Source: a phage
Sequence record: PQ724394.1
DNA length: 64,000 nucleotides
Strand: one strand, 5' to 3'
Positions 32,624 to 48,803 of this stretch are shown here, piece after piece. The position numbers and the translations under genes are program-made. The first letter of the stretch is position 1. Each line of letters opens with the position of its first letter. The notes beneath the pieces were generated by a model. It had not been told where the DNA came from, searched no databases, and was given only the letters and a program-made list of their open reading frames with translations.

Positions 32624-32654
32624 ATGAACCTCTGTCCAATTAGTGTAGAATGTT

Positions 32655-32683: not shown

Positions 32684-32690
32684 ACTTTGC

Positions 32691-32698
32691 TATAAATA
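32691..32698 (+). promoter_or_regulatory. Late promoter TATAAATA for gene 34
   Basis: Exact TATAAATA about 33 nt upstream of the gene 34 ATG. Confidence 0.65.
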
Positions 32699-32730
32699 GT
32701 TCTATACCCTGAAAACGAAAAGGAAATAAA

Positions 32731-35700
32731 ATGGCTGATATTTTAAAACCTGCATTCCGTGCTACATCCGGACTCGATGCTGCGGGCGAGAAAGTTATCA
32801 ATGTTGCCAAAGCCGATTACAATGTACTAGATGATGGCGTCAACGTTGAATTCTTTATAGATGAGAACACCATCCAGGCGTACGACGAGACGCGCGGATA
32901 TAAGAAAGGGTTTGCAGTAATCCATGACCAACGTATTTGGGTTGCTCAACGTGATATCGCTGCACCAGCCGGAACTTTTGTACCTGGTTATTGGACCGCT
33001 ACCCGTACTGACCCTAAATGGATTACAGTAGCATCTCCTACGCGCCAGTTGGCTTCCGGTGAATATATTGCGGTGGACTCAGCTGCTAGCTTTACTACAT
33101 TTACTCTGCCTCCTAACCCTACTGATGGTGATACCATTGTAATCAAGGATATCGGCGGCCGTGTAGGTTATAATGAAATCAAGGTTCAATCTAGTTCTGC
33201 TCCAGGCGGTGGTAATCAGAAAATTGTTCGTTTTGGTAACCAGTTCTCTGAAACTCTGATAACCAAACCTTTTTCTTATAACATGCTTATCTTTGCTAAC
33301 CGCCTTTGGCATTTCTGGGAAGCCGGTAACGAAGAACGTGGTATTCGTGTAGAGCCTAACACTGCACAGTTCCAAGCTCAAGCGGGTGATAACGTTTTAC
33401 GTCGTTATACTTCAGGTGCAGTAATTAAATTTACTCTTCCTAAGTATGCGAACCAAGGTGACATGGTTAAAACCGTAGATATCGATGGTCTTGGAAGTAA
33501 GTTCCACTTAATCGTTGAAACCTTTGATGCATCATCTTCATTGGGTAAGCCTGGTCAGCATAGCATGGAATTCCGTACCTCTGGTGATGGGTTCTTTGTT
33601 TATAACTCTGTTGAAAAAGTGTGGTATGTTTGGGACGGCGACCGTCAAACTCGTCTGCGTGTTATTCGTGATGACGTAGAACTTTTGGCTAACGAAAGTA
33701 TTATTGTTTTTGGTCCTAATAACACAACTCCACAAACTATTAATATCACTTTACCTACTAACGTAGCACAAGGCGATACTATTAAAATCGCATTGAACTA
33801 TCTTCGTAAAGCACAGACAGTAAATATTAAGGCTGCTGTAGGTGATAAAATTGCTTCTTCGGTTCAATTGCTTCAGTTCCCTAAACGTTCCGAATATCCA
33901 CCAGATACTGAATGGGTGTTGAATGATGTATTGACCTTTAATGGCAATATAAGTTATACCCCGGTTATTGAACTGAGTTATATCGAAGACACCACTACAG
34001 GTGCTAAATATTGGGTTGTTGCCCAGAACGTTCCTACGGTAGAACGTGTGGATTCTAAGGATGATTTAACTCGTGCTCGTCTTGGTGTTATTGCCCTTGC
34101 GTCTCAGACCCAGGCTAACGTTGACCATGAAAATAATCCTGAAAAAGAACTTGCAATTACTCCTCAGACCTTAGCCAATCGTGTTGCCACTGAAACTCGT
34201 CGTGGTATTGCTCGTATTGCTACAACTGCTCAGGTAAACCAAGACACCACTTTCGCTTTCCAGGATGATTTGATTATTTCTCCTAAGAAATTAAACGAAC
34301 GTACTGCAACCGAAACTCGTCGTGGTGTAGCTGAAATTGCTACGCAACAGGAAACTGATGCTGGTGTTGACGATACCACCATTATTACTCCTAAGAAGCT
34401 ACAGACGCGCCAGGGCACTGAAAGTCTTTCAGGTATTGTAAAATATACCTCTACGGTAGATACCACTCCTGCGACTGCTAGGGACACTGTAGGTACTAAC
34501 GTTTATAATAAGAACGTAGGCAATTTGGTTATTTCTCCTAAAGCTTTAGACCAATATAAAGCTACTCAAGCCCAACAAGGTACGGTATATCTTTCTACCC
34601 AATCAGAAGTTAATACTGGACAATCTGCTAGTGGATTTGCTAACAGTGCGGTTTCTCCTGAAACGTTGCATGCTCGTGTGGCTCTTGATACTCGTACAGG
34701 GTTAATTGAAATTGCTACGCAACAGGAAACTGATACTGGAACTGATTATACTCGTGCGGTAACGCCTAAGACGTTAAATGATAGGAAAGCTACGGAAGGA
34801 TTGACTGGTATTGCTAGAATTGCAACCCAGGTAGAATTTGATGCAGGCACGTTAGATAATGTTATTTCAACTCCGTTGAAAATTAAAACAAGACTTAATG
34901 ATACTGCTAGAACTTCTGTCTCAGCAGCCAGCGGTTTGATTGAATCAGGAACCTTATGGAACCATTATACACTAGATATTAGAGAAGCAAATGAGACTCA
35001 ACGTGGTACCGCTCGTCTGGCTACCCAGACCGAAGTCAATGTTGGCACTGATGACAAAACCATCATCACTCCTTTGAAATTACACTCTAAAAAATCTACT
35101 GAAAGTTCTGAAGGTATTATTCGTGTTGCAACGAATACCGAAACCACTGCAGGAACTTCTAAAGTTCTGGCTGTAAGCCCTTCTGGTTTAAAATATGTAG
35201 TACAGTCCGAAACCACTTGGGAAGCTACTGCACTTCGTCGTGGATTTGTTAAATTGACCGAAGGTGCTTTGACTTACTCAGGAAATAAAGTTACCGGTTC
35301 CGGTGTTAAATTTAACTCAGGTACAGGCCTTTATGAGAATGACGATACTGTTCTGAATGCGGCCAACTATCCTAAAACAGGTTATGCGGTTTCATCTTAT
35401 GAGATGAATAAAACTTTGCAGAACTTTTTACCTATAAATGCTACGGCTGTGAACTCTGAGAAATTGGATGGTCTGGATTCACTTCAGTTCATTCGTAGAG
35501 ACGTCGACCAAACGGTTAATGGTTCTTTAACCCTGACCAAACAATTGAACCTGGCAGCCCCTCTGGTGTCTTCTAGTACTGCTACATTTACGGATGTTAC
35601 AGCTACTAATTCTACCTTTGGTACAGTGAATGTTGTTAACGGAACCAATAAATGGAAAATAACATCTCCATCTACTGGAACTACATTAACGATTGGCGAT

Positions 35701-36699
35701 ACTACTAACGTATTGACATTAAACACTGCTACGGGTAATGTTGCTGCACTTAACAACCTTAGCGCTGGTAATGATGTTCAAGCCAAAAATAACTTTGTGT
35801 TAAATGGAAGAACTATCGCAACCACCACCGGTGAAGCTTCTGGTGCTACATTGTCTTTAGGCGATAATTCTCAGAACTTGGTACTTAAAACATTAGATGC
35901 AGGAAATATCGTAGCTAATGGTGGCGGTGCATTTAAAGTTCTTACCGAGAAAAACGCAGTAGAAATTGTAGACAGAAACTTTGTTAACCAAGCCGGTGAT
36001 ACAATGTCCGGTGTACTCCGTGTGAATGCTCCGGTTCGTGTATTTGGTACTAAGCCTACATTAGCTTCTCAGGTTCCTACGGCAGAGACAGTTGGCTTCT
36101 GGTCTGTTGATATCAATGACGAGGCCACTTATAGTAAGTTCCCTGGTTATTGGACTATGAAGACCAAACGACAAGTTAATATTGACACGGTCCAAACTAA
36201 ACCTGCTGGTGTTTCTGATGAGGTATGGAATGCTTCCGGTTGGTTAACAGAAACCGGTGCATTTAGTTCTCCGGCTATTCGTTATCGTAACGAAGACGGT
36301 AGTTTTGGTGATGAAGTTCTTGGTACGTCTGGTCAGAAATTACGTGGTGCTTGGTTTGATTATTCTGTTCGTGATAAGGAAGTTAAATATCCTGGTACAT
36401 TAACTCAGTTTGGCAATACGTTAGATTCATGTTATCAGGATTGGGTGTGCTATCCTACAGGACTGAATGGTGGTACTATTCGTTATACACGTACCTGGCA
36501 GAAGAATAAAAACGCATGGACCACGTTCTCTATGGTCTATACAGCAGATAACCCTCCTTCTGCGGAAGATGTTGGTGCACTGCCGGCAGATAACGCCACA
36601 ATGGGTAACATTACAATCCTCGATTGGTTGCGTATTGGTAACGTTCGCATTATTCCTGACCCAGTCACTAAATCCGTTAAGTTTGAGTGGATTGAATAA
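32731..36699 (+). CDS. 34: Long tail fibre proximal subunit gp34
   Basis: 1322 aa; internal repeats; first gene of 34-35-36-37 operon. Confidence 0.9.
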   Translation: MADILKPAFRATSGLDAAGEKVINVAKADYNVLDDGVNVEFFIDENTIQAYDETRGYKKGFAVIHDQRIWVAQRDIAAPAGTFVPGYWTATRTDPKWITVASPTRQLASGEYIAVDSAASFTTFTLPPNPTDGDTIVIKDIGGRVGYNEIKVQSSSAPGGGNQKIVRFGNQFSETLITKPFSYNMLIFANRLWHFWEAGNEERGIRVEPNTAQFQAQAGDNVLRRYTSGAVIKFTLPKYANQGDMVKTVDIDGLGSKFHLIVETFDASSSLGKPGQHSMEFRTSGDGFFVYNSVEKVWYVWDGDRQTRLRVIRDDVELLANESIIVFGPNNTTPQTINITLPTNVAQGDTIKIALNYLRKAQTVNIKAAVGDKIASSVQLLQFPKRSEYPPDTEWVLNDVLTFNGNISYTPVIELSYIEDTTTGAKYWVVAQNVPTVERVDSKDDLTRARLGVIALASQTQANVDHENNPEKELAITPQTLANRVATETRRGIARIATTAQVNQDTTFAFQDDLIISPKKLNERTATETRRGVAEIATQQETDAGVDDTTIITPKKLQTRQGTESLSGIVKYTSTVDTTPATARDTVGTNVYNKNVGNLVISPKALDQYKATQAQQGTVYLSTQSEVNTGQSASGFANSAVSPETLHARVALDTRTGLIEIATQQETDTGTDYTRAVTPKTLNDRKATEGLTGIARIATQVEFDAGTLDNVISTPLKIKTRLNDTARTSVSAASGLIESGTLWNHYTLDIREANETQRGTARLATQTEVNVGTDDKTIITPLKLHSKKSTESSEGIIRVATNTETTAGTSKVLAVSPSGLKYVVQSETTWEATALRRGFVKLTEGALTYSGNKVTGSGVKFNSGTGLYENDDTVLNAANYPKTGYAVSSYEMNKTLQNFLPINATAVNSEKLDGLDSLQFIRRDVDQTVNGSLTLTKQLNLAAPLVSSSTATFTDVTATNSTFGTVNVVNGTNKWKITSPSTGTTLTIGDTTNVLTLNTATGNVAALNNLSAGNDVQAKNNFVLNGRTIATTTGEASGATLSLGDNSQNLVLKTLDAGNIVANGGGAFKVLTEKNAVEIVDRNFVNQAGDTMSGVLRVNAPVRVFGTKPTLASQVPTAETVGFWSVDINDEATYSKFPGYWTMKTKRQVNIDTVQTKPAGVSDEVWNASGWLTETGAFSSPAIRYRNEDGSFGDEVLGTSGQKLRGAWFDYSVRDKEVKYPGTLTQFGNTLDSCYQDWVCYPTGLNGGTIRYTRTWQKNKNAWTTFSMVYTADNPPSAEDVGALPADNATMGNITILDWLRIGNVRIIPDPVTKSVKFEWIE

Positions 36700-36707
36700 G
36701 AGGTATT

Positions 36708-37829
36708 ATGGAAAGATTTATGGCAGAATTTGGACAAGGATATGTCCAGGTTCCTACATTATCTGAAAACAATGCTGTAAGATATAAACTTAGTATAGCT
36801 GGTAGTTGTACTAAGTCTACCACAAAAGCATATGTTAAATTTCAAGATGGGGACTTCGGTCCCCAGAATTTTCAAAATGGACTAAACCTTATAGAAATTG
36901 ATGTTAGTGCCGAACCTAAAGTGGTGGCTAACAAAACTTATAGCTTTACAAAAGATTTTGATGTTATCTCTGAAGCTTTTATTACTTACATAAGTTCAAT
37001 ACCGGCCAATAGAATAGTTTGTTTAGTATCTTCCGGTAGATTAAATGCTTCACAAAATCTTATTGATTGGTTCCGTGCAGCAGGAAGTACCGCATTTCCA
37101 TCTAAATGGCTAATAGACCGCTTCGAGCCGTCTTATTCGGCCTTTTACGTGTCTGGTAGAAATACTATAGTGATGGAACACGTCCTTTATAATGATGGGG
37201 TGTTTGTTGAAGATGTTTCTACACCATTAGAAGTCGTTTTTGACGATATCAGTGATGTAGGCGGGACCGGGTATCCTATAAGAATAGTGGAAGATGAAAA
37301 CACTTATCTAAGTAATGGTGGAGAGGAAATAAAACGTTTCCCTACTGAATCTCCTACTACTCCTTGTGCCGATTATAACATGAAGCCAGGAGAATTCTTT
37401 TATCTTAAATTCCAAATGATGTGTGACCAGGAATTAAAAGATTTAGGGACTTCTCAAATGTCTGTTAGATTTTTTGATGCCTCAGGTGCTTTAACAGGGT
37501 CGGTTAATATGGAAGTTCCGCCTAATGTCCCTGCCGGGTCTTGGATGACTTTTGAGCGGGTAATTGAAGTTCCTGCTAATACGGAAACATTTACATTGTA
37601 TGCAAGAAAAACAGTGGCCGATGGAGTCGGTGGTGTACGTAATGTGATGTTTGGGGAAGTATCAGAGCCAGAATCTCAACCTAAATCGGCTGAATTTGGT
37701 GTAAACGGTATCCGTATGAATTTCGGTACTGAAACTAAGAATATGGGTACTACCATAGCCCAGTTATACGATAAAACAGGTACTAAACCAGGTCAGGTTT
37801 GGGTGTCTGAATTTAGAGAAAAATATTAA
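36708..37829 (+). CDS. 35: Long tail fibre hinge connector gp35
   Basis: 373 aa; synteny. Confidence 0.85.
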   Translation: MERFMAEFGQGYVQVPTLSENNAVRYKLSIAGSCTKSTTKAYVKFQDGDFGPQNFQNGLNLIEIDVSAEPKVVANKTYSFTKDFDVISEAFITYISSIPANRIVCLVSSGRLNASQNLIDWFRAAGSTAFPSKWLIDRFEPSYSAFYVSGRNTIVMEHVLYNDGVFVEDVSTPLEVVFDDISDVGGTGYPIRIVEDENTYLSNGGEEIKRFPTESPTTPCADYNMKPGEFFYLKFQMMCDQELKDLGTSQMSVRFFDASGALTGSVNMEVPPNVPAGSWMTFERVIEVPANTETFTLYARKTVADGVGGVRNVMFGEVSEPESQPKSAEFGVNGIRMNFGTETKNMGTTIAQLYDKTGTKPGQVWVSEFREKY

Positions 37830-37847
37830 GGAACCTTCGGGTTCCTT
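37828..37847 (+). terminator. Rho-independent terminator after gene 35 (UUCG hairpin + U-run)
   Basis: AAGGAACC-ttcg-GGTTCCTT followed by TTTCGTTTT. Confidence 0.65.
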
Positions 37848-37904
37848 TTTCGTTTTCTACGGCCATAAATATATAAAAGGCTATAACTCCCAAAGGAAAC
37901 TCAA

Positions 37905-38552
37905 ATGGCAGATTTAAAATTAGGTTCTACAGCAGGAGGTTCGGTATTATGGCACCAAGGTAATTTTCCTTTAACGCCTGTATCAAATGACCTTCTTTAC
38001 AAAACGTATAAAGTTTACACCGAGTATAATAAACCTCAAGCAGTTGATAACGATTTCGTTTCAAAAGCTAACGGTGGTAATTATCAGAACAACGTGTATT
38101 TTGAAAAAGGTTTGACCTTTAATGATACTAATGGATACGGTATTAAATTAGGAGCAAGAACTGGCGGAGCCCCGTTCACAGCTTCTTTCCGTATTAAAGG
38201 TGCTTTTGGGTATGAAACGGAAGATGGTACTCCGTTTGTGATATTTGACCCAAATACAACAGTTGGTGCTAAACGTCTTACCGTAATGGGTGATTCATTA
38301 TTCCGTCAAGTATATGATGAATCAGGACGCGTATTCAGCCCAGGCAACACCCCTACTAAAGCTCAAGTTGGATTGCCATTAGTAGATAACGCAAAACAGG
38401 TCCAAATAAATAATACTAATATGCAAACAATGACTGGGGTACTTGCGGCTCCTAACTTCATTTCATTAAATCCGGCCTCTGACGCAGGACATGTTCCGCG
38501 TTTTGACCAGATTGTTCAAAAAGATTCTATCCAAGATTTTGGTTATTATTAA
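37905..38552 (+). CDS. 36: Long tail fibre distal connector gp36
   Basis: 215 aa; synteny. Confidence 0.85.
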   Translation: MADLKLGSTAGGSVLWHQGNFPLTPVSNDLLYKTYKVYTEYNKPQAVDNDFVSKANGGNYQNNVYFEKGLTFNDTNGYGIKLGARTGGAPFTASFRIKGAFGYETEDGTPFVIFDPNTTVGAKRLTVMGDSLFRQVYDESGRVFSPGNTPTKAQVGLPLVDNAKQVQINNTNMQTMTGVLAAPNFISLNPASDAGHVPRFDQIVQKDSIQDFGYY

Positions 38553-38560
38553 GAGGCATT

Positions 38561-41500
38561 ATGGCTACTTTAAAACAGATACAATTTAAAAGAAGTAAAG
38601 TAGCTGGTGTACGTCCTACGCCAGCGCAGTTGGCTGAAGGCGAGCTGGCTATTAACTTAAAAGACCGTTTGTTATTTACTAAAGATGATACTGGAGCGAT
38701 TATCGACCTTGGCTTTGCTAAAGGTGGTAATATTGACGGTAACGTTGTTCATAAAGGAAATTATAATCAAACTGGGGATTACACCCTAAATGGTACCTTT
38801 ACCCAAACCGGCGATTTTAATTTAACCGGTATTGCTCGTGTAACTCGTGATATTATTGCCGCAGGTCAGATAATGACCCATGGTGGGGAACTTATTTCCA
38901 AGAGCGCCTCAACTTCTCACCTTCGATTCTTTGATGGCAGTGACCGTGAACGTGGTATTATCTTTTCTCCTAATAATGCAGGAGCAACCAACCAAGTAGT
39001 TAATATTCGCGTACAAGATTATTCTACCGCAGGCGAAAGCACTTATGCATTTTCAGGCAATGGTTTGTTCACTTCACCTGAAGTATCAGCATGGAAATCT
39101 ATTTCGTCTCCACAAATTCTGACCGATAAAGTTATTACAAACGGGAAGAAGACCGGCGATTATGATATCTATTCATTGGCCGATAATACCCCATTGGCAG
39201 AAAGTGAAACAGCTATTAACCATCTCCGTGTTATGCGAAATGCTGTAGGCGCGGGTATATTTCACGAAGTTAAAGATAATGACGGAATAACCTGGTATGC
39301 CGGCGACGGCTTAGAAGCTTATCTTTGGTCATTTACCTGGTCCGGTGGATTGAAAGCAGGCCATTCTATTTCCGTAGGCACCCCAGGTAACTCTAAAGGA
39401 TATTCTGAATTAGGAAATGCTTCAATTGCTCTTGGCGATAATGACACCGGGCTAAAATGGCATCAGGATGGATATTATTTCAGCGTTAATAACGGCACAA
39501 GAACTTTCCTGTACGGCCCAGCAGAAACCACCAGTCTTAGAAAAATGGTTATGGGGTATTCTGTAAACGGTACCGATTTAACCACTCCTCCGGCGGAAAA
39601 CTATGCTTTGGCTACTGTTGTCACTTATCATGATAATAACGCATATGGCGATGGCCAAACTCTTTTAGGTTATTACCAAGGCGGCAATTATCACCACTAT
39701 TTCCGTGGTAAAGGTACTACAAACGTTAACACTGCTGGCGGTTTGTTAGTGACTCCTGGTAATATTGATGTTGTTGGTGGTTCTGTTAATATCGATGGTA
39801 GAAATAATGCTTCTACGCTGATGTTTAGAGGTAACACAACTGGTAGTAGTTCAGTTGATAATATGACAATTTCTGTATGGGGTAATACGTTTACTAATCC
39901 TAGTGTAGGTAATCGTAAAAACGTTATGGAAATTTCTGACGCAACTAGTTGGATGAGTTATATTCAAAGACTTACTACTGGTGAAGTAGAAATGAACGTC
40001 AATGGTTCATTTGAATCATCCGGTGTTACTGCTGGAAATAGAGGAGTTCACACAACAGGCGAAATTTCGTCTGGAGCAGTAAATGCGCTTCGCATTTGGA
40101 ATGCAGATTATGGAGCCATTTTTAGACGTTCAGAAGGCAGTCTTCATATTATTCCAACTGCTTACGGTGAAGGTAAAAATGGTGATATCGGACCACTTCG
40201 TCCATTTAGTTTGGCTTTAGATACCGGTAAGGTTGTTATTCCTGACCTAGATTTGAGTTATGCTTCTTTTGCAGCAAACGGTTATATTAAATTCGGTGGA
40301 CATGGTGCAGGTGCAGGCGGTTACGATATTCAATATGCACAAGCAGCTCCTGTTTTCCAAGAAATTGATGATGACGCGGTAAGTAAATATTATCCTATTG
40401 TTAAGCAGAAATTCTTACAAGGAAAAGCTGTTTGGTCTTTAGGTACTGAAATTAATTCCGGGACTTTTGTTTTACACCATCTTAAAGAAGACGGGACTGA
40501 AGGTCATACCTCAAGATTTAATGCTGATGGTACAGTTAACTTCCCTGATAACGTGCAGGTTGGTGGCGGTGAAGCTACTATTGCTCGAAACGGTAATATC
40601 TGGTCTGATATTTGGAAAACGTTTACTTCAGCAGGCGATGTAACTAATATTCGCGATGCCATTGCTACTCGTGTTTCTAAAGAAGGCGACACGATGACCG
40701 GCCGTTTAACCATCAATGCAAACTCGGATGCTATTGTTATTAACAGTGCTGAAACCCAATCTGGTTATGTGAAAGGACAAAAAGCTGGTGTTGATAACTG
40801 GTATATAGGCAATGGCGGCGCTGATAATGCCCTATCGTTTTATAGTTTCCAAACTAATTCAGGCGTTAATATTCATAATACCGGGGAAATTTCTTTAGCC
40901 CCCCAAGGGTCGGATACTTTTTATTTTAATAGGGACCGTCTTTATATAAAGGGTTCACAATGGGCTGCACATCAGGCTGGCGATTGGGGAAACCAATGGA
41001 AGCAAGAAGCCCCTGTGTTTGTAGATTTTGGTAATGTTGGTAATGATAGTTATTATCCGATTATCAAAGGAAAATCTGGTATTACTAACGAAGGATACGT
41101 ATCCGGTGTAGATTTTGGTATGCGCCGCATCACTAATACATGGGCGCAAGGTATTATTCGTGTAGGTAACCAGGAAAACGGTTCCGACCCGCAAGCTATC
41201 TATGAATTCCACTCTAATGGTACTTTTTATGCTCCGAGCTTACTTAAGAGCAACAGAGTATCGGCCGGCGGTGGAGACCCTGTATGGGGTGGGCCGTGTA
41301 TTGTTATCGGCGATAACGACACCGGATTGGTGTGGGAAGCGGACGGTATTTTCAACGCATATGCAAACGGTCAAGGGGTGTTTAGTTTTAGAGCCGGACT
41401 TGCCCAGACATTTGGTAACGTTAACTTACACTGTAATGCGGGTATGTATGTTCGTGATAACATCGATGTTAACGACGTTTATATTCGTTCTGATATTCGT

Positions 41501-41806
41501 TGTAAGTCGGAAATTAAGCTTATAGAGAATGCCCAAGAGAAATCTAAACTCTTAGGTGGTTATACTTATCTGCTTAAAAACTCTGTCACAGATGAAGTTA
41601 AACCATCTGCAGGTTTAATTGCTCAGGAAGTTCAAGAAGTATTGCCTGAACTTGTGACTGAAGATAAAGAGACCGGCTTACTTCGTTTAAACTATAACGG
41701 TATTATCGGTTTAAATACTGCTACTATCAACGAGCATACTGATGAAATCAAGGAATTGAAATCTGAAATTGCTGAGTTGAAAGCATTAATTAAATCATTA
41801 TTATAA
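38561..41806 (+). CDS. 37: Long tail fibre distal subunit gp37
   Basis: 1081 aa; synteny; C-terminal region resembles an intramolecular chaperone domain. Confidence 0.9.
41489..41803 (+). other. C-terminal intramolecular-chaperone-like domain of gp37 (S74-peptidase-like signature)
   Basis: [14 protein letters not shown] ... GGYTYLL ... [16 protein letters not shown] ... coiled-coil tail; resembles the self-cleaving C-terminal chaperone of phage fibre/endosialidase proteins. Confidence 0.5.
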
Positions 41807-41810
41807 GAAA

Positions 41811-41824
41811 GGGCCTTCGGGCCC
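41811..41824 (+). terminator. UUCG-tetraloop hairpin between genes 37 and 38 (attenuator/stabiliser candidate)
   Basis: GGGCC-ttcg-GGCCC immediately before the GGAGG RBS of gene 38. Confidence 0.45.
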
Positions 41825-41835
41825 TGGAGGTTTTT

Positions 41836-42615
41836 ATGGCAGTAGTAGGAATTCCTGGTTGGATTGGAACTTCGGCCGTTGCGGAAACAGGCCAACGCTG
41901 GATGTCAGCAGCTTCTAGAGAATTACGTCTAGGGAACCCATCTTGGATGTCGCAATTTGCTGGTAGGTCTCGTGAGATTATTCATACCCTTGGAGCGGAC
42001 CACAACTTCAACGGGCAATGGTTTAGAGACCGTTGTTTTGAAGCCGGCGGTGCTCCTATAGTGTTTAATATCACAGGCGACTTAGTATCATATACTAAAG
42101 ATGTTCCGTTGTTCTTTATGTACGGTGATACCCCTAACGAATATGTTACTTTGAATATTCATGGTGGTGTTCATATGTGGGGCCGAGGTGGCAACGGTAC
42201 AGTAAATGGAAGCCCAGGCACTAATGGTGGTGACGTAATCCAAAATGATATTGGTGGACGACTTCGCATTTGGAACTATGGTGTGATAGCCTCCGGCGGT
42301 GGCGGCGGCGGTGGCGTATCATTACAGAATAGTTGGCCTGCAAATTCTACAGCAGGTGGCGGTGGCGGCAGACCATTTGGTCTCGGCGGCGGTGGTGTTA
42401 ATTGGCCAGGCGGCAATGCTAGTTATGTTGGTCCAGGTGGCGGTGGTAATACAAGCCAATTTGGCGCTGGCAATGGTGGTGATGCTGGAGGTTGGGGCGG
42501 AGACGGATGGGGTAGTAACTTATCCAGGTCAGGTGGTGGTGCTCCTGGTAGAGCAGTATTCGGTTCCTCCCCATCATGGGGCGCTACAGGCACTATCTAC
42601 GGCTCTTGGTTATAA
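41836..42615 (+). CDS. 38: Tail fibre adhesin gp38 (T2-type, glycine-rich motifs)
   Basis: N-terminus [63 protein letters not shown] as in T2-type gp38; C-terminal half with poly-Gly tracts. Confidence 0.85.
42286..42570 (+). repeat. Glycine-rich low-complexity repeats within gene 38
   Basis: Runs of GGN codons (GGGGGGG, GGGGG, GGGG, GGGG) separated by short variable segments; locally GC-rich. Confidence 0.8.
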
Positions 42616-42631
42616 TACGAAAGTATTAAAT

Positions 42632-42639
42632 TATAAATA
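42632..42639 (+). promoter_or_regulatory. Late promoter TATAAATA for holin t
   Basis: Exact TATAAATA about 20 nt upstream of AAGGAG RBS and ATG 42658. Confidence 0.6.
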
Positions 42640-42657
42640 TCTTTAAAGGAGAAAAGT

Positions 42658-43311
42658 ATGGAACCAAAAGTAGGATTTTCATTATCAGACCTACTTTTTG
42701 GACTTCTTGATAGAATTTTTAAAGATACTTCTTCCGGGAAAGTAGTTTTTTCCCGGGTCCTAGTCGTAATATTATTGTTCTTTATGGCATTAGTTTGGTA
42801 TAAAGGCGAGCATATTCTAAACTTTTATAAAGAGACAACTTATGCCTCTTATACTGAAATGATTAGACAAGACCAGGACAATAGATTTAAAATTGCGGCT
42901 ATCGAGCAGCTCCGAATAGTGCATTCTTCTTCAGGCGCAGACTTCACAGCAATATATTCTTTTAGGCCGACCAACATGAATTATTTTGTGGACATGGTTG
43001 CTTATGAGGGTAAATTACCGGAAACGGTAGACGCAAAAAATACGGGAGGATTTCCGATTGACAAAACGTCAGTAGAGTATATGGCGGGAGTTAACGGGAA
43101 CTATTTTGAATCATCTACTGAATCTGTGTTTCTCCCTACAAAGGAGAAAACCCATTTCACTTATATGTTTTCATGCCCGTTTTTTAATTTGGATAACATC
43201 TATGCCGGCTCGATATCATTATACTGGTATGACATCAAACCGGATTTAGGATTTCCTAGACTTTCGTCTATGTGTGGTCAGGCCGGGAGGACATTAGGTC
43301 GAACTCGTTAA
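42658..43311 (+). CDS. t: Holin / lysis inhibition sensor T
   Basis: 217 aa; N-terminal TM segment; conserved FSCPFFNLDNIYAGSI and KTHFTYMF blocks as T4 holin T. Confidence 0.9.
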   Translation: MEPKVGFSLSDLLFGLLDRIFKDTSSGKVVFSRVLVVILLFFMALVWYKGEHILNFYKETTYASYTEMIRQDQDNRFKIAAIEQLRIVHSSSGADFTAIYSFRPTNMNYFVDMVAYEGKLPETVDAKNTGGFPIDKTSVEYMAGVNGNYFESSTESVFLPTKEKTHFTYMFSCPFFNLDNIYAGSISLYWYDIKPDLGFPRLSSMCGQAGRTLGRTR

Positions 43312-43583
43312 AAATTGGAGGTATACATCATTAGATAACGGTGTATATCTTCATACCCTTCATTAAATTGCTCAATAAGAGTATCACGTTCATCTTCAGT
43401 TAAAGACTTAAAGAGTTTATTAAAAGATAGGCCATTAAGTTCCTTTCCATGTTCATTACGAATACCTAACTCATTCAAAAAGGCAATAAACTCATCACGA
43501 CGTTGCATGATGTCTTCACAATCCGTTTTAATCAAAATGGAAACAATAGTAGCAATTTCGGAAACGATTTCAATTTTAGTCAT
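43308..43583 (-). CDS. asiA: Anti-sigma-70 factor AsiA
   Basis: 91 aa; ..FIAFLNELGI...LTEDERDTLIEQFNEGYEDIHRYLMMYT matches T4 AsiA. Confidence 0.9.
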   Translation of the reverse strand: MTKIEIVSEIATIVSILIKTDCEDIMQRRDEFIAFLNELGIRNEHGKELNGLSFNKLFKSLTEDERDTLIEQFNEGYEDIHRYLMMYTSNF

Positions 43584-43641
43584 TTTAATTTACTCAAGTA
43601 TTCAATAGGACATTCATTTATTCAGTAAGAATATTGTAACA

Positions 43642-43893
43642 CTATTCTTCTAGATTGTACACATGATTTTTCATCCGTACAACATATTCCTGATACATTT
43701 CTTCAATAGGTTCCTGGAACTTAAAATCAGCTCCTAGGAATTCCTCAAAGCACTCCTGCTCACGTGTACGCATACCTGTTACGGTATTCTCTAAGTTATG
43801 ACTCATAGCCTTTACCCTTATGTTTCTGCTTACGCTTAGACTCTTTAAAATTTTTCTTCTTGTCCTTATGGACCGAAGCCTTATTGAAATCAT
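43642..43893 (-). CDS. Hypothetical protein (83 aa; may start at internal ATG 43806)
   Basis: ORF; first ATG 2 nt after upstream stop, internal ATG has AGGG RBS. Confidence 0.4.
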   Translation of the reverse strand: MISIRLRSIRTRRKILKSLSVSRNIRVKAMSHNLENTVTGMRTREQECFEEFLGADFKFQEPIEEMYQEYVVRMKNHVYNLEE

Positions 43894-43895
43894 GC

Positions 43896-44180
43896 TTAGC
43901 TACAAGATTGTTCATCACGTAATTTCCTTAATTGATATTCAAGAGAACTGATAATTTCTTTATTAGTTGCAATATACATATCACGTAGGAACGGCTTCAA
44001 CCCTTCCATATTCCCATGAATTGTCTTAGAACTAATATTCTTTATATATTCATGGTCTAATGCATCCCAAGCCGGCTGGTTGACATAAGTTCCCCAATTA
44101 TCTTCAACCATAACATTCAGACGTTTAATATGGTTGATATGGGCTTCGATTGCATCAATCTGGAGTTGTTTAAGATTCAT
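43896..44180 (-). CDS. Hypothetical protein (94 aa)
   Basis: ORF in arn-like position. Confidence 0.45.
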   Translation of the reverse strand: MNLKQLQIDAIEAHINHIKRLNVMVEDNWGTYVNQPAWDALDHEYIKNISSKTIHGNMEGLKPFLRDMYIATNKEIISSLEYQLRKLRDEQSCS

Positions 44181-44668
44181 TAGTAAAGGTCCTCAGAGTA
44201 AAGTTCTTTTTCACTACCACCACGTTCAATACGAACTTGATTAGCATATGTTGCAATAATCATTGCTTCTTCGCGAGTCCAATAATTTGAGTATTGGTCG
44301 ATAAATCCTTGGTCATCACCGCAAACATGCTCAGATACAAGTTTATCACTTACTTGGTCAAGCACTTCTGCCATATCTTTAGAATAATGTCGAGCGCCAG
44401 GAATAACCAAAGTCCCACCGTCTTTTAACTTAAAGCGGTTGGCTGCACACACAATTCGTCGCTGATATTTTTCATTGTTATTCCAATGAGCAATCTGCCA
44501 ACAGATTTCAGGAACCTCTTCCAAAACATCCTCTTCCGAATATTCAGTGTAATCACCATAGGCCCGTAATTTGGCCGCTAAGCTTTCAGGCGTCTCGCGA
44601 GAAAGAGCTTTATCTAATAAAGCCATACGGTCTTTAAAAGATAATTCTTTACCTTTTAATGGATTCAT
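44180..44668 (-). CDS. Hypothetical protein (162 aa)
   Basis: ORF, start overlaps upstream stop. Confidence 0.5.
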
Positions 44669-45024
44669 TTCACAATTACCTTATAGCCTTTAACTTTAGA
44701 AAATGATTGGATTTTGGAACCGGTTTCTATCAACATATCTTCATTAGAAGAAGATAGCATGATATCCACAATTTGGCCTTTACCGTATGGGTTGATAGAA
44801 ACTTCTTCCTCGGCAATCATAGCTAAAAATCTATTTAACTGCATACCAAATTCAAGAGTCACTTCATGAATACGAAGGTTAAGCTGGTATACTTTCTTAA
44901 CACCGTTAACTAAGGAAGTCATTTCACCCCATGCATTACGTTGTTCTTCGCGAGGCTCTTCAATCAATTTAAGGGAATGGCCTTCGCCGTCCCAGTTAAG
45001 TTCCATCGGAATCATTTGAACCAT
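44665..45024 (-). CDS. Hypothetical protein (119 aa)
   Basis: ORF. Confidence 0.45.
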
Positions 45025-45341
45025 CCTTTAACACGTTGCCATAAAGTTTTCTGTTGAGCTTTATTAACACCAATTGAACGAATGACCGGTTGTGATTCCT
45101 GGTATTCTTTGTAGTCGGCTTTATAGACTTCATAAGCAGCCGGAACAAAGGTGCTGATGGCCGCCATAAAGTTCTTACGAATTCCCATAGAAGCTTCAGA
45201 ACCACCACGGATGATTAAGTATTTACCCGCTTTAATCTTAACAATAGTTCCAAGATAAGCGCCATGGTACCAAATATCCCAACCTTCTTGAGTAGGTTCT
45301 GCACAACGACGAAGTTCATTAACAATATTCAGCTTGTTCAT
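45012..45341 (-). CDS. Hypothetical protein (109 aa)
   Basis: ORF directly downstream of motA. Confidence 0.45.
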   Translation of the reverse strand: MNKLNIVNELRRCAEPTQEGWDIWYHGAYLGTIVKIKAGKYLIIRGGSEASMGIRKNFMAAISTFVPAAYEVYKADYKEYQESQPVIRSIGVNKAQQKTLWQRVKGWFK

Positions 45342-45359
45342 AATAATTTCCTCAGTCAG

Positions 45360-45992
45360 TTAAATTGCGTTGGTTACGGTTTTGATAACTTCAGATGATA
45401 CGTTTTGGAAGTCGATATAAGTATTCTTACCACCAGTCTTAATCTTAACATCAAGATTCAAGGAAGTAAACACTTGTTTTTCTTTATCAGTCATATTATA
45501 ACCGAAGATACGCATCATTCCGTCACGACGGACTTCGATTTGACGAATACCGTTGGTACGTTTAGCGAATCGAACTTCAAGATTGCTACGGTTTTCAGCG
45601 ATTTCACGAATCTCGATACGGTCTTCTAACAAAGATTTAACTTCATCAGCCAATACCACCATTTCAGGAGTAACACCACGCGAACTGCGAGTTTTACGTT
45701 TTTCCAACATCTCTGGAGCATTTTCAGAAGCGAACAGGTCAGCAGCTTTTTGAACTAGGTCCATTGCTTCACCCGTAGCCACCAGTCCATCACCAGATTT
45801 TTCGATGAATCCTTTCTTAATCAATACACCGATGTTAGAGTTAACTACCGCTGCACTAAATTGTTCACTCAGGGCTTCACGGACTTCGCCTGAAGTGATG
45901 AAGTTATTCTTGATGATATGTACTAAGATAGAAGCCGTTTTTTCATTCAGGACGTCTTCAGAAGCTTTGATGATATAAGTAATTTTAGACAT
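45360..45992 (-). CDS. motA: Middle-transcription activator MotA
   Basis: MSKITYIIKASEDVLNEKTASIL...VVNSNIGVLIKKGF.EKSGDGL matches T4 MotA; ATG at 45992 with GGAG RBS (track start is upstream inside promoter). Confidence 0.9.
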   Translation of the reverse strand: MSKITYIIKASEDVLNEKTASILVHIIKNNFITSGEVREALSEQFSAAVVNSNIGVLIKKGFIEKSGDGLVATGEAMDLVQKAADLFASENAPEMLEKRKTRSSRGVTPEMVVLADEVKSLLEDRIEIREIAENRSNLEVRFAKRTNGIRQIEVRRDGMMRIFGYNMTDKEKQVFTSLNLDVKIKTGGKNTYIDFQNVSSEVIKTVTNAI

Positions 45993-46026
45993 TTTAATCT
46001 CCGATAACCATTTATTTGATAGGTCT

Positions 46027-46055
46027 ATAGTATCATGTTTAAAGCAGAAGTAAAC
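46027..46055 (-). promoter_or_regulatory. Early-promoter cassette for motA (GTTTAC -35, 17 nt, TACTAT -10)
   Basis: Minus strand GTTTAC 46055-46050, TACTAT 46032-46027; TGCTTTA element at 46046-46040. Confidence 0.55.
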
Positions 46056-46093
46056 TTTATTAGAGCTCTTTTTCAAGAGCTCTAATAAAGTAC

Positions 46094-46321
46094 TTACTTA
46101 ATGTTCAGATTACGAACTTCGATTTCGTCTTCAGGGGCAAAATCAAACTGTTTGAATTCTGTGTCACCTTTAAATTTAAAAATCATTGTGAAGAAAGTCA
46201 GAACACCGGGTTTTTCTTCACGAACTCCACAGATATCATATTCAATACCATCTACAACCAGTTTGTTAGCAGTCAGAGCATTTTTAGCTTTAACGATTTC
46301 GTTTTCGATTTTAAATTTCAT
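46094..46321 (-). CDS. Hypothetical protein (75 aa)
   Basis: ORF with GGGAGA RBS and cassette upstream. Confidence 0.5.
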   Translation of the reverse strand: MKFKIENEIVKAKNALTANKLVVDGIEYDICGVREEKPGVLTFFTMIFKFKGDTEFKQFDFAPEDEIEVRNLNIK

Positions 46322-46368
46322 TTTTGTATCTCCCGGTTGTTTGTTTCAGTTCATTTATTTGATAGGTC

Positions 46369-46398
46369 TATAGTATCATGTTTAAAGCAGATGTAAAC
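46369..46398 (-). promoter_or_regulatory. Early-promoter cassette (GTTTAC -35, 18 nt, TACTAT -10)
   Basis: Near-identical copy of the motA cassette. Confidence 0.55.
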
Positions 46399-46422
46399 AC
46401 TTTTTTGCACTAAACCCAAAAA

Positions 46423-46438
46423 GGAACCCGAAGGTTCC
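46423..46438 (-). terminator. Rho-independent terminator (UUCG hairpin + U-run) after small ORF
   Basis: GGAACC-cgaa-GGTTCC; on minus transcript followed by UUUUUGGG. Confidence 0.65.
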
Positions 46439-46543
46439 TTACTTTTTAAAGTGAGCCGCTATTAGACCTATAGCTAAGCCCGTTGCCAGGCCTAGGATAA
46501 CAGCAAAGATACAGAGTAACAAGAACTCAACTCCAAGGCTCAT
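46439..46543 (-). CDS. Small hydrophobic peptide (34 aa), coupled to gene 52 stop
   Basis: ATG overlaps gene 52 TGA (ATGA); MSLGVEFLLLCIFAVILGLATGLAIGLIAAHFKK; not in ORF track. Confidence 0.4.
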   Translation of the reverse strand: MSLGVEFLLLCIFAVILGLATGLAIGLIAAHFKK

Positions 46544-47919
46544 AGAGCCTCCAAATCTTTAATATACTCAGTTACAACATCAGTGGTTTTCCAGTATTGG
46601 TGCTCTTCCTTCTTAGCCTTAGCTTCGAGGGCCAATTTCTTGGCTTCGTCAGAGGTAATATGGAAAATATTCATTGCTACAAGTTTATCAGCATATTCGC
46701 CATAGACTTTGTTACTGGCCAATTCTTCGGTTAAAACCTTACGGGTCTTACCTTGGATAACCACTACGCCATCAATAACATCTTTAATGAATGTAGCTTT
46801 AGCCAGGGCCAGTTTGAAAGCTTCTTCGGTTTCGATGATTTTACCATCAATACGTTTTTGTACAAAGGTCTTACGGACCTCAACGAAATCACGAATCAGT
46901 TCAACTGCATCTTCGTAAACCTTAAGTTTACCTTTCTCATTAATAACGGTCAGGTTTTGCGAACGACGTTCGATTAACCCAAAGTCTTTCATGATTTTTT
47001 CGTGCTTCTTATTTTCTTCAGTAGGCAATTCATATTCTTTACGAATCTTAACCTTGAAGCCGAAACCATTCTCGTCACAGTCGTCATCATACGTGATATA
47101 CCCTTTGTCTTCTAAAGGGTCCAGAACCTTGGCCACATACGTTTCACGGTCATATTTGTACGGGATTTCTGTGATATGCATTTGGGTTCGAGATGTGAAC
47201 TTATAGGTCCCACGAATCTCATAACTTCCAGGTTCAATCTCAACAACTTCACCACGGAATTCCGGATAAGCCACCTTAGGCTTGGTTACGCGTTTTTCTT
47301 GAAGAACCTGCAATACAGCTTTCTTAACAGAATCAAAACTATGAGGAAGGATATTAGTTGCATAACCAGTTGCAATACCGGAAATACCATTAAGAAGAAC
47401 AGTAGGAATAATAGGCAGATAAAAAGCTGGTGGCTTATGTTCGACATCCGCATGAACCGGAGCATATTCTGTATCCTTATAAACCTTTGCGAAATTAGTT
47501 CCAATTCGTGCAAAAATATAACGAGATGCCGCTGCTTTTTGAACCAAACGAGAACCAAAGTTACCTTGTCCATCTAACAGTGGGAAGTTGTTGTTCCATG
47601 TGTTGGCCATCAAAGCCCCTGCTTCCTGAGCAGAACCTTCACCATGGTGGTATCCAAGGTCGGCTACACCACCTGCAATAGAAGCTAGTTTGTGGAATTT
47701 TTCTTTATTACCACGAGCCATATCAAGACAACGAGCAACTACAAAACGTTGTACAGGTTTAAAACCGTCAATCATATTTGGAATGGCGCGGTTTTCGACA
47801 GTATACATTGCGTAAGCCAGCGCTTCGTTGTCGATGATGCTTTTTAAGTCACGACGAGTAAAAGCATCATCGTAAACATCTAAGGATTGTTTAAAAAGGG
47901 TATCAATTACATCAGCCAT
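46540..47919 (-). CDS. 52: DNA topoisomerase II medium subunit gp52 (GyrA-like)
   Basis: 459 aa; GyrA/ParC-like block PNMIDGFKPVQRFV; synteny. Confidence 0.9.
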   Translation of the reverse strand: MADVIDTLFKQSLDVYDDAFTRRDLKSIIDNEALAYAMYTVENRAIPNMIDGFKPVQRFVVARCLDMARGNKEKFHKLASIAGGVADLGYHHGEGSAQEAGALMANTWNNNFPLLDGQGNFGSRLVQKAAASRYIFARIGTNFAKVYKDTEYAPVHADVEHKPPAFYLPIIPTVLLNGISGIATGYATNILPHSFDSVKKAVLQVLQEKRVTKPKVAYPEFRGEVVEIEPGSYEIRGTYKFTSRTQMHITEIPYKYDRETYVAKVLDPLEDKGYITYDDDCDENGFGFKVKIRKEYELPTEENKKHEKIMKDFGLIERRSQNLTVINEKGKLKVYEDAVELIRDFVEVRKTFVQKRIDGKIIETEEAFKLALAKATFIKDVIDGVVVIQGKTRKVLTEELASNKVYGEYADKLVAMNIFHITSDEAKKLALEAKAKKEEHQYWKTTDVVTEYIKDLEAL

Positions 47920-47923
47920 AATT

Positions 47924-48064
47924 TTACCATACTAGTGAATGAATAACCATAATAACATCGGAAATAAAAAGCACAACTTGGATAAGACCGAATATTACTC
48001 CATAATACAGCGCTACTAATAAAGCAGCAAGGGCTACAGAGTAGCCCAGGATTTGTTTAATCAT
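47924..48064 (-). CDS. Small membrane peptide (46 aa), not in ORF track
   Basis: MIKQILGYSVALAALLVALYYGVIFGLIQVVLFISDVIMVIHSLVW; ATG overlaps upstream stop. Confidence 0.4.
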   Translation of the reverse strand: MIKQILGYSVALAALLVALYYGVIFGLIQVVLFISDVIMVIHSLVW

Positions 48065-48225
48065 TTCTTGACCAAGGCTTCCAGAAATTTAACGATTGCA
48101 TCAATTACGAACCAAGTGCAAATAAATCCAACAGCGAAAGGACCTGGAACCCACACACCAGCAGCAAAAAGGGTTACCCACACAATAACAATCACGAGCC
48201 AGATAAAAGTATAAATCGGTTGCAT
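48061..48225 (-). CDS. Small membrane protein (54 aa), Ac-like by position
   Basis: MQPIYTFIWLVIVIVWVTLFAAGVWVPGPFAVGFICTWFVIDAIVKFLEALVKK; two predicted TM segments; position of T4 ac. Confidence 0.4.
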   Translation of the reverse strand: MQPIYTFIWLVIVIVWVTLFAAGVWVPGPFAVGFICTWFVIDAIVKFLEALVKK

Positions 48226-48232
48226 AATTTCC

Positions 48233-48313
48233 TCACAAGCGTCCGAAGACGCCTTTGGTTTTAAGATTGTTACGATAGAACTGCATCACATGTTCGTTAT
48301 GGAAATTACTCAT
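48233..48313 (-). CDS. stp: Stp peptide (26 aa)
   Basis: Translates to [26 protein letters not shown], essentially the T4 Stp sequence as recalled; ATG overlaps ndd stop by 1 nt. Confidence 0.8.
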
Positions 48314-48762
48314 TAGTAAGCCTGCAGAACGAATTTGAAGTTATCGGCCAACATGCGGTTCATTTCTTCCAGAGTCTGAAGGTCGGAACTATGGTTGCGA
48401 GTGAAAGCCATTGCAATTTGACCTTTACCAAAGCCTGTGGTCAGTGGTTTCATTTTAGAAGCTGGCACATAAAGAACTTCGTACAGAACACCATTTACGG
48501 CCATGGTACGAGCTGATTGTGAACGTTTCTTACGAATGTTAGCCACGATACCATCAAGACCTTGAGCTGAACGTTGGTTGCCGACATAAAAACGAGCGGC
48601 TACGACACGAGAATCTGCTTCACCTTTAACAAAGAAGTAGAAGCCGGGCTGAGCCGAGATTTCTTTAGAAGGCTTACCATTTTGGTATTCGCCATTCTTA
48701 ACATAAGCAACAGTAGTAGCACCAGCAGACAGAACGTTACCGCGAGTCATATAAGTATTCAT
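48313..48762 (-). CDS. ndd: Nucleoid disruption protein Ndd
   Basis: 149 aa; ..[12 protein letters not shown]...RKKRSQ.ART.A...[24 protein letters not shown]...[21 protein letters not shown] matches T4 Ndd. Confidence 0.9.
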
Positions 48763-48803
48763 ATCAATTTCCTCAGTAGATTAATGTTTTGTTATCCAGT
48801 CAA

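Follow-up and report, generated by a model that had tools for sequence, protein, structure and literature searches.

The module analysed here most probably forms the distal long-tail-fibre tip of a Dhakavirus-like T-even phage on the plan known from T2, T6 and S16, in which a self-cleaving gp37 is capped by a separate adhesin, gp38; we give this reading a probability of about 0.9. The window is the whole stretch of 64,000 nucleotides taken from sequence record PQ724394.1. The sequence itself shows to which families the proteins belong, which motifs are conserved, how the genes are ordered and that the ancestry is mosaic. The genes of the locus are arranged in the order g34-g35-g36-g37-g38-t, with gene 37 ending at 41806, gene 38 occupying 41836-42615 and t starting at 42658, and gene 38 lies between gene 37 and t in 12 of 12 reference loci as well. 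The module is an ordinary new allele of the well-studied T2/T6-like coliphage system, and no observation speaks against this assignment. The adhesin gene and its two main regions are located as follows.

41836..42615, + strand: gene 38, T2-type tail-fibre tip adhesin of 259 aa (Pfam GP38 and Gp38_N; PDB 9V85 and 6F45_D)
41836..41961, + strand: N-terminal attachment domain of gp38, residues 1-42, with Trp9, Trp22 and Trp37 (Pfam Gp38_N)
42181..42555, + strand: glycine-rich specificity region of gp38, residues 116-240, with 39% Gly and poly-G runs, in which conserved motifs alternate with hypervariable loops

A preliminary description of this DNA had named the gene next to gene 37 a T2-type gp38 adhesin, and the two families of such adhesins (PF05268 and PF21721) support this identification. 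The Pfam GP38 model is matched over its full length (1-218 of 218) by residues 47-259 (E 5.9e-81, 271.9 bits with a cut-off of 25), and the Gp38_N model (1-40 of 40) by residues 1-42 (E 7.1e-21, 74.4 bits with a cut-off of 25). The best match among solved structures is the receptor-binding domain of PP01 gp38 (PDB 9V85; 4.4e-76, residues 40-257), with about 65% identity over 218 residues of the crystal structure, and gp38 of S16 (6F45_D) is matched at 2e-51. From these two matches, the fold of gp38 is probably a polyglycine-II sandwich combined with a beta-helix. The term 'T2-type' is to be read as the name of a class: gp38 of T2 itself is only 53% identical overall, and the nearest receptor-binding domains are those of the OmpF-binding group. 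Residues Trp9, Trp22 and Trp37 of the attachment domain are invariant in all 12 aligned gp38 proteins, and the three tryptophans of this domain have been described as prongs which insert into pockets of gp37 (PMC6851490). Neither gp38 nor gp37 has an exact match in a public collection of 15 billion proteins.

The C-terminal half of gp38 was earlier said to alternate poly-glycine tracts with variable segments, and both composition and alignment agree with this. Residues 116-240 contain 39% glycine, compared with 12% in residues 1-115, and the poly-G runs have lengths of 7, 5, 4, 4 and 3. Alignment of gp38 from 12 phages reveals that the glycine tracts are conserved and that the intervening segments are variable across receptor classes. 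The conserved glycine-rich motifs are located at residues 116-121, 154-160, 174-187, 201-204 and 212-223. Local GC content rises up to 0.50, versus about 0.40 nearby, because of the GGN codons of gp38. Further open reading frames are present within gp38 on both strands, which are by-products of the same GGN-rich composition.

Alignment of gp38 with T2, T6 and related adhesins, the check which the preliminary description had proposed, allowed the variable segments to be mapped, and five predicted receptor loops, A to E, were placed by transferring the loop definitions of PP01 gp38 (PMC12892980) through the alignment with 9V85.

42199..42216, + strand: predicted receptor loop A, T122-P127, TVNGSP (PP01 loop A, W119-I124; PMC12892980)
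42322..42351, + strand: predicted receptor loop B, L163-T172 (PP01 loop B, Q161-V170; PMC12892980)
42391..42405, + strand: predicted receptor loop C, G186-W190, GGVNW (PP01 loop C, N184-W189)
42448..42462, + strand: predicted receptor loop D (HVS3), N205-F209, NTSQF (PP01 loop D, N204-Y209)
42505..42525, + strand: predicted receptor loop E, G224-S230, GWGSNLS (PP01 loop E, N225-S231)

Every compared member of the OmpF group has an identical loop C. Loop D retains Gln208, which in the alignment with RB51 is the equivalent of Gln206 of that phage, while loop E carries a Ser227-Asn228 pair seen in no other sequence compared.

The loop sequences lead us to favour OmpF, with modest confidence, as the primary receptor. 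Overall identity of gp38 is 93% to Bas47, 89% to FL33, 89% to fPS-2 and 85% to RB51, and identity to all four is higher in the receptor-binding half. OmpF dependence has been reported for AlbertHofmann/Bas47 (PMC8594841), FL33 (PMC12032242), fPS-2 (PMC7917993) and RB51 (bioRxiv 10.64898/2026.04.02.716166). OmpF is only a prediction because 12 positions in or beside the loops (S126, G160, P168, A169, S171, V198, G199, G203, N205, A211, S227 and N228) differ from at least one OmpF-proven adhesin. One of these, N205, is three residues away from Gln208, the equivalent of the glutamine whose replacement alone moves RB51 from OmpF to OmpW. P168-A169 and G203 form a sub-allele common to NC-G, UGJNEcP3 and the gp38 described here, and our literature search found no receptor data for NC-G and UGJNEcP3, the nearest relatives with this sub-allele. 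Another Dhakavirus, LHE83, uses OmpA (PMC10987938).

These 12 differences, N205 and S227-N228 included, give some weight to the less likely reading that the module works as set out here and that, through its private loop substitutions, this allele recognises another receptor, such as OmpW, OmpC or an LPS epitope, in place of OmpF. It has been reported that the single substitution Q206L in gp38 moves RB51 from OmpF to OmpW (bioRxiv 10.64898/2026.04.02.716166), and host-range point mutants of Ox2, as cited in PMC3157838, are in line with such a shift. However, four or five OmpF users, characterised independently and belonging to three genera, have loops A to E which otherwise hardly differ from those here, Gln208 is kept, and closely related gp38 receptor-binding domains share receptors in published trees (PMC12032242). 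It is doubtful, yet conceivable, that the private residues N205, S227-N228, V198 and A211, together with the shared sub-allele, could retarget the adhesin to another porin or to a divergent OmpF variant; if so, the retargeted allele would be a natural intermediate of receptor switching within an OmpF-type scaffold. OmpF remains our preferred receptor.

Receptor specificity had been assigned to gp38 and not to the gp37 tip. By homology this holds for the primary determinant, as porin specificity has been redirected by gp38 swaps and by point mutations (PMC3157838; bioRxiv 10.64898/2026.04.02.716166). It does not hold for gp38 as the only determinant: LPS and the short fibre gp12 also take part in setting the overall host range (PMC7917993; bioRxiv 10.64898/2026.04.02.716166), and gp38 is therefore the primary and not the sole one.

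The fibre subunit to which gp38 would be attached is encoded immediately upstream, and its C-terminal part contains the following features.

38561..41806, + strand: gene 37, distal long tail fibre subunit precursor of 1081 aa (open reading frame; Pfam Gp34_trimer, gp37_trimer and Peptidase_S74)
41306..41488, + strand: residues 916-976, the last 61 of the predicted mature gp37, a beta-helical tip ending in DVYIR (aligns with 6F45_A)
41489..41803, + strand: intramolecular chaperone/autoprotease domain, Ser977-Leu1081, 105 aa (PF13884, residues 977-1033)
41489..41506, + strand: S-D-I-R-C-K motif, with Ser977 at 41489-41491 and Lys982 at 41504-41506
41609..41632, + strand: AGLIAQEV motif within the chaperone domain (residues 1017-1024; G, A and Q positions invariant in the gp37 alignment)

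The preliminary description let a chaperone signature of about 105 C-terminal residues start at 41489, and the codon of Ser977 does begin at this nucleotide, exactly 105 residues being left to the end of gp37. Its reading of S-D-x-R-x-K ... AGLIAQEV as the signature of an intramolecular chaperone is confirmed by a full-length S74 match and by the alignment with S16 gp37. Peptidase_S74 (PF13884) is matched by residues 977-1033 with E 3.8e-12 and 46.7 bits (cut-off 22; model 1-58 of 58), and the domain lies at the extreme C-terminus of the protein (residues 977-1081 of 1081). The last 166 residues of gp37 match S16 gp37 (6F45_A) at 6e-30. Scores of the size obtained for gp37 and gp38 lie well outside what chance would give. 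A profile search with 11 gp37 sequences matches 6F45_A at 7e-38, MYRF at 1.5e-10, the tail fibre 8JOV at 1.3e-7 and the chaperone domain of the GA-1 neck appendage (3GUD) at 0.0085, the matches to 8JOV and 3GUD starting at SD.R.K. The segment containing Ser977 and Lys982 aligns with SDRRIK in S16, SDERHK in GA-1 3GUD, SDERLK in 8JOV and ADLRAK in MYRF chain 7DC3, and AGLIAQEV aligns with sAGLIAQEV in S16 and GVIAQEV in MYRF.

Ser977 and Lys982 are placed with the spacing S-x4-K at the N-terminal edge of the domain. We take them, from established knowledge of the S74 family, to be a Ser/Lys dyad, in which Ser977 is the predicted nucleophile and P1' residue and Lys982 the predicted general base. 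The S, D, R and K of SDIRCK are invariant among 11 aligned gp37 sequences, and VY.RSD.R.K is invariant in gp37 of T2, T6, JS98, NC-G, Bas47, FL33, fPS-2, FL08, Bp7 and UGJNEcP3. The chaperone is predicted to be released by a cut between Arg976 and Ser977 (DVYIR^SDIRCK). In S16, the autocleavage site of gp37 is DLNVS^SDRRIKK, and the aligned motif DVYIR^SD has also been described (PMC7917993). Cleavage and capping of gp37 have been described for T2 and T6 (PMC3157838), and that paper cites Drexler 1986 for proteolytic processing of T2 gp37. Residues 916-976, which precede the S74 domain, align with the crystallised beta-helix tip construct of S16 gp37 (6F45_A), and (D)VY(I/V)R is kept in 11 gp37 proteins, T2 and T6 among them. 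This tip ending in DVYIR is the predicted docking surface for gp38, a role taken from PMC7917993 and PMC6851490.

As the family assignment of the S74 domain comes from its sequence alone, the domain might be a degenerate relic which is kept in the mature fibre, or it might be removed by a host or phage protease. Either case is very improbable, because the dyad Ser and Lys and the flanking VY.R and D.R are invariant whereas other tip residues are only 34-39% identical, the Pfam S74 model is matched end to end, and in S16 the homologous domain cuts itself at the bond aligned with this one (PMC7917993).

For gp37 and its cap we infer cleavage, capping, stoichiometry and receptor use from characterised homologues as follows. 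gp37 would be made as a precursor of 1081 residues, whose intramolecular chaperone (Ser977-Leu1081) would nucleate trimerisation and folding of the beta-helical fibre. The Ser977/Lys982 dyad would then cut the Arg976-Ser977 bond and the chaperone would dissociate, leaving a flat trimeric gp37 tip ending in DVYIR exposed. One copy of gp38 would cap this tip, its N-terminal helical bundle inserting Trp9, Trp22 and Trp37 into three equivalent pockets, and the glycine-rich motifs in the C-terminal half of gp38 would form a polyglycine-II sandwich from which the five variable loops face the outer membrane of the host. In the S16 virion, gp38 is present as a single copy which caps the gp37 trimer (PMC6851490).

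That gp38 is an assembly chaperone of the T4 type, acting outside the virion while the gp37 tip reads the receptor, is hardly credible even though homologues in many database records still bear the name 'distal long tail fiber assembly catalyst' or 'assembly chaperone', and we reject such an identity on the Pfam and PDB matches: both adhesin families (PF05268 and PF21721) are matched at full length and no chaperone family in Pfam, the crystallised PP01 receptor-binding domain is about 65% identical, gp37 has a removable S74 domain instead of a T4-type needle tip, and a note in the Bp7 record calls the 'gp38' of the T2 subfamily the adhesin, unrelated to T4 gp38.

Two short elements are located in the intergenic regions before and after gene 38.

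41810..41830, + strand: intercistronic GC hairpin AGGGCC-UUCG-GGCCCU (41810-41825), then the gene 38 Shine-Dalgarno sequence GGAGG (41826-41830) (sequence, fold and a terminator-like match)
42632..42639, + strand: T4-type late promoter box TATAAATA, upstream of the holin gene t (42658-43311), at the downstream limit of the fibre operon

A GC-rich hairpin of other sequence is present at the same site in T2, T6, FL33, fPS-2 and FL08. Conservation of the hairpin is positional, judged by eye and without statistical support, because RNAalifold on the alignment of the g37-g38 intergenic region returned a consensus of only 4 pairs and no compensatory pairs, with the hairpins of the lineages out of register, and folding of the single sequence gave a z-score of only -1.5. 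The product of t matches Pfam Phage_holin_T at 1.6e-66, and in fPS-2 a late promoter is annotated at the equivalent place upstream of t. A sigma-70 promoter scan around the module gave matches not above shuffled expectation, and tRNA and Rfam scans of the whole window returned no matches.

Comparison with relatives reveals that the module is a mosaic. JS98 gp37 has 91.4% amino acid identity to the gp37 described here, and the gp37 chaperone and the intergenic region have about 100% nucleotide identity to JS98, whereas JS98 is 62-79% identical to the receptor-binding half of gp38 (over 42126-42605). NC-G matches this half of gp38 and the holin with 88-100% identity, but upstream of about 41400 its gp37 tip falls to 53-75%. 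The module thus joins a gp37 tip and chaperone which are about 100% JS98-like to an NC-G-like receptor-binding half of gp38, and neither relative has both. The join is a further case of the modular exchange already known at the tip locus and opens no new question. What is new here is the OmpF-type likeness of the loops, the mosaic join and the two proteins without an exact public match. Locating the primary host-range determinant is of practical and not of conceptual value; the coordinates of the bond predicted to be cut, of the docking tryptophans and of the five loops, together with the OmpF prediction, are useful for host prediction and for gene 38 swaps.

Among known systems, the gp37-gp38 tip complex of S16 (PDB 6F45; Dunne et al. 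2018, as reported in PMC6851490 and PMC7917993) likewise has a beta-helical gp37 tip followed by a C-terminal self-cleaving chaperone which starts with SD.R.K, and its gp38, with a three-Trp attachment domain, a beta-helix and a polyglycine-II sandwich, follows the same plan as gp38 here. However, the S16 chaperone is 113 residues long and is cut after Ser (DLNVS^S), in contrast to 105 residues and a predicted cut after Arg (DVYIR^S) here, and the host of S16 is Salmonella and its gp38 loops are different. In the OmpF-dependent phages AlbertHofmann/Bas47, RB51, FL33/FL34 and fPS-2 the receptor-binding half is nearly identical, with 1-3 differences in each of loops A, B, D and E. This one receptor-binding domain is found with three types of attachment domain and gp37 tip, namely the Dhakavirus/Mosigvirus type (here and in Bas47), the T6 type (FL33 and fPS-2) and a third type (RB51). 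From PP01 gp38 (9V85), which binds OmpC (PMC12892980), the loop definitions A to E transfer directly, but the loops themselves are unrelated in sequence.

T2 and T6 share the architecture, the order g37-g38-t, the gp37 cleavage motif and the glycine-rich motifs. However, T6 gp38 is 81% identical over the N-terminal 144 residues only and has unrelated loops, and the gp37 tips of T2 and T6 are 34-39% identical to the tip here. The Peptidase S74 domains of endosialidase, the GA-1 neck appendage and MYRF share Ser-x4-Lys at the domain start, G(L/V)IAQE and a C-terminal place after a trimeric beta-helix, but are distant (profile E 0.0085 to 1.5e-10) and have other passenger domains. T4 encodes its gp37 and gp38 at this locus too, and its fibre is homologous in the proximal part; there, however, the C-terminal needle of gp37 binds the receptor and gp38 is an unrelated chaperone outside the virion (PMC6851490, PMC3157838).

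An operon for T-even long tail fibres lies on the + strand of the window, and the genes annotated in this region are as follows.

Genes of the long tail fibre region (window positions)
32731-36699, + strand, gene 34, 1322 aa
36708-37829, + strand, gene 35, 373 aa
37905-38552, + strand, gene 36, 215 aa
38561-41806, + strand, gene 37, 1081 aa
41836-42615, + strand, gene 38, 259 aa
42658-43311, + strand, holin t, 217 aa (Pfam Phage_holin_T, 1.6e-66)

Megablast of positions 30000-50000 returned the Dhakavirus phages NC-G, JS10, JS98 and UGJNEcP3 (~91-95% identity) and no identical record, and no exact match for gp37 or gp38 was present in a collection of 15 billion proteins. The phage is therefore a Dhakavirus-like coliphage. 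Residues 57-130 of the hinge protein gp35 give a marginal match to Pfam ILEI (FAM3 / interleukin-like EMT inducer), at 28.6 bits against a curated threshold of 27 (E 2e-6).

Sliding-window nucleotide identity over 41106-42900 reveals a sharp change of closest relative, from JS98-like through the 5' part of gene 38 to NC-G-like from ~42100 to the end of holin t. Upstream of ~41400, identity to NC-G falls to 53-75% while that to JS98 is still 86-100%. The chaperone domain of gp37 and the intergenic region (41466-41825) are 99-100% identical to JS98; for the receptor-binding half of gp38 (42126-42605) the figures are 62-79% against JS98 and 88-100% against NC-G. The module is therefore a mosaic in which a JS98-like gp37 tip is combined with an adhesin specificity domain of NC-G type. 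The change-over falls within the 5' half of gene 38, which indicates a recombination junction there. Across genera, the OmpF-type specificity domain is found on three types of attachment domain, and the gp37 tip type changes with them: this phage and Bas47 have the Dhakavirus/Mosigvirus type, FL33 and fPS-2 the T6 type, and RB51 and FL08 a third type (RB51 was compared by attachment domain only). Modular shuffling at this locus has been described previously (PMC3157838, PMC12032242).

The nearest gp38 proteins are those of UGJNEcP3 (96.5%) and NC-G (96.1%), followed by a set at 85-93% which includes the OmpF-dependent phages AlbertHofmann/Bas47, FL33, FL34, fPS-2 and RB51. Dependence on OmpF has been established by ompF knockout and complementation for AlbertHofmann/Bas47 (PMC8594841), with ompF and LPS mutants for fPS-2 (PMC7917993) and by experiment for FL33 and FL34 (PMC12032242) and RB51 (bioRxiv 10.64898/2026.04.02.716166). 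Alignment of gp38 with T2, T6 and relatives, as the preliminary description had proposed, reveals conserved glycine motifs and allowed the loop segments to be compared. The loops were placed by carrying the PP01 definitions (PMC12892980) through the PP01/gp38 alignment.

Predicted receptor loops of gp38 (from PP01)
T122-P127, loop A, TVNGSP
L163-T172, loop B, 10 residues
G186-W190, loop C, GGVNW
N205-F209, loop D (HVS3), NTSQF
G224-S230, loop E, GWGSNLS

Segment by segment, loop C is the same as in the OmpF-proven set, from which each of loops A, B, D and E departs by 1-3 residues; the loops of JS98, FL08 (OmpA), T2 and T6 (Tsx) are unrelated. The substitution Q206L in HVS3 of RB51 changes the receptor from OmpF to OmpW (bioRxiv 10.64898/2026.04.02.716166), and the equivalent Gln208 is retained here. 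OmpF is the best receptor prediction for this adhesin, with a probability of about 0.6. A different receptor might be suspected from the positions at which gp38 departs from at least one OmpF-proven adhesin (S126, G160, P168-A169, S171, V198, G199, G203, N205, A211, S227-N228), with G160, V198, A211 and S227-N228 private to this allele among the sequences compared; given the shared loop C, the near-identical other loops and Gln208, we consider it possible but less likely than OmpF. The placing of specificity in gp38 is a supported reading, within the limit that host range is also governed in part by LPS and the short fibre.

Near the 3' end, the annotated gp38 genes of Bp7 (NC_019500, 1401-2192) and FL34 (PP400789, 1201-2013) appear to run out of frame; in Bp7 the divergence sets in around residue 222, and the tblastn match is confined to residues 1-209. 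The GGN-rich tract may thus contain frameshifts in these records, whether from errors in sequencing or because the adhesins are really defective.

The codon for Ser977 of gp37 begins at position 41489, and the 105 residues from there to the C-terminus include SDIRCK (977-982) and AGLIAQEV (1017-1024). The whole Pfam Peptidase_S74 model ('chaperone of endosialidase') is matched by residues 977-1033 (E 3.8e-12, score twice the curated cut-off), in agreement with the chaperone-type domain assigned earlier to the last ~105 residues from an S-D-x-R-x-K ... AGLIAQEV signature. The motif V-Y-x-R-S-D-x-R-x-K is invariant in all 11 aligned gp37 C-termini (this phage, UGJNEcP3, NC-G, AlbertHofmann, FL33, fPS-2, Bp7, JS98, FL08, T2 and T6), although the tips of FL33, fPS-2, T2 and T6 are elsewhere just 34-39% identical to the one here. 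By the established scheme of the S74 family, Ser977 and Lys982 are the predicted catalytic dyad. That the domain is a non-cleaving relic is unlikely, as the dyad residues are invariant while the tips otherwise diverge.

Over its final 166 residues, the protein aligns to the S16 gp37 construct in PDB 6F45 (6.4e-30). A profile built from the 11-phage alignment and searched against PDB chains matched S16 gp37 (6F45_A, 7e-38), the MYRF auto-processing domain (7DC3, 1.5e-10), a phage tail fibre (8JOV, 1.3e-7) and the GA-1 neck-appendage intramolecular chaperone (3GUD, 0.0085), the last two matches starting at S-D-x-R-x-K. In S16, the last 113 residues of gp37 autocleave at DLNVS^SDRRIKK once trimerised, and the aligned DVYIR^SD of other T-even phages is the cleavage site and gp38 docking surface (PMC7917993); proteolytic processing of T2 gp37 was reported by Drexler et al., cited in PMC3157838. 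As gp37 here reads DVYIR^SDIRCK, homology predicts that the Arg976-Ser977 bond (nt 41488/41489) is cut, which would free a 105-residue fragment. The motif GDNDTGL.W..DG is present twice in gp37 (residues ~290-312 and 916-940), the second copy aligned to the beginning of the crystallised S16 tip, and gives the impression of a fibre domain boundary repeated within the protein.

Both Pfam GP38 (5.9e-81) and Gp38_N (7.1e-21) match gp38 over the full length of the models, and this family membership excludes a T4-type chaperone role. Glycine makes up 39% of residues 116-240 vs 12% of residues 1-115, and its uninterrupted tracts are 7, 5, 4, 4 and 3 residues long, bearing out the glycine-rich adhesin recognised next to gp37; 'T2-type' holds as a class name, not as nearest relative. 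This glycine richness accounts for a local GC bump and spurious overlapping ORFs. Among solved structures, gp38 is closest to the receptor-binding domain of PP01 gp38 (9V85, 4.4e-76, residues 40-257) and to S16 gp38 (6F45_D, 2e-51, residues 8-259). Trp9, Trp22 and Trp37 are invariant among 12 aligned sequences, in which the glycine-rich motifs are also conserved; the equivalent Trp residues of S16 are prongs docking into gp37 (PMC6851490).

The stretch at 41810-41835, which separates the stop codon of gene 37 from the Shine-Dalgarno/ATG of gene 38, has a GC-rich UUCG-tetraloop hairpin (41810-41825, AGGGCC-UUCG-GGCCCU) followed by GGAGG and TTTTT. A GC hairpin occupies the equivalent position in T2, T6, FL33, fPS-2 and FL08, with a different sequence in each. 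As the stems do not line up with one another in the alignment, RNAalifold gave no compensatory support, and folding of the single sequence reached a z-score of only -1.5. Speculatively, the hairpin might stabilise the gene 37 message or attenuate read-through, fitting a 3:1 gp37:gp38 stoichiometry. Holin t and gene 34 each have an exact T4 late-promoter box (TATAAATA) a short way upstream (42632-42639 and 32691-32698, respectively), no exact box precedes genes 35, 36, 37 or 38, and a box with one mismatch (CATAAATA) precedes gene 36 at 37864; the whole window holds four exact boxes, which is not above chance.

Taken together, the observation in the preliminary description is confirmed and its interpretation supported, and the useful output consists of annotated coordinates and an easily tested receptor prediction. 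An S74 intramolecular chaperone on T-even gp37, a monomeric polyglycine-II adhesin gp38, hypervariable loops as receptor determinants and recombination at this locus have all been described already, so that a specialist would find nothing surprising in the module; only the allele and its mosaic combination are new (best matches 96.5% for gp38 and 91.4% for gp37).
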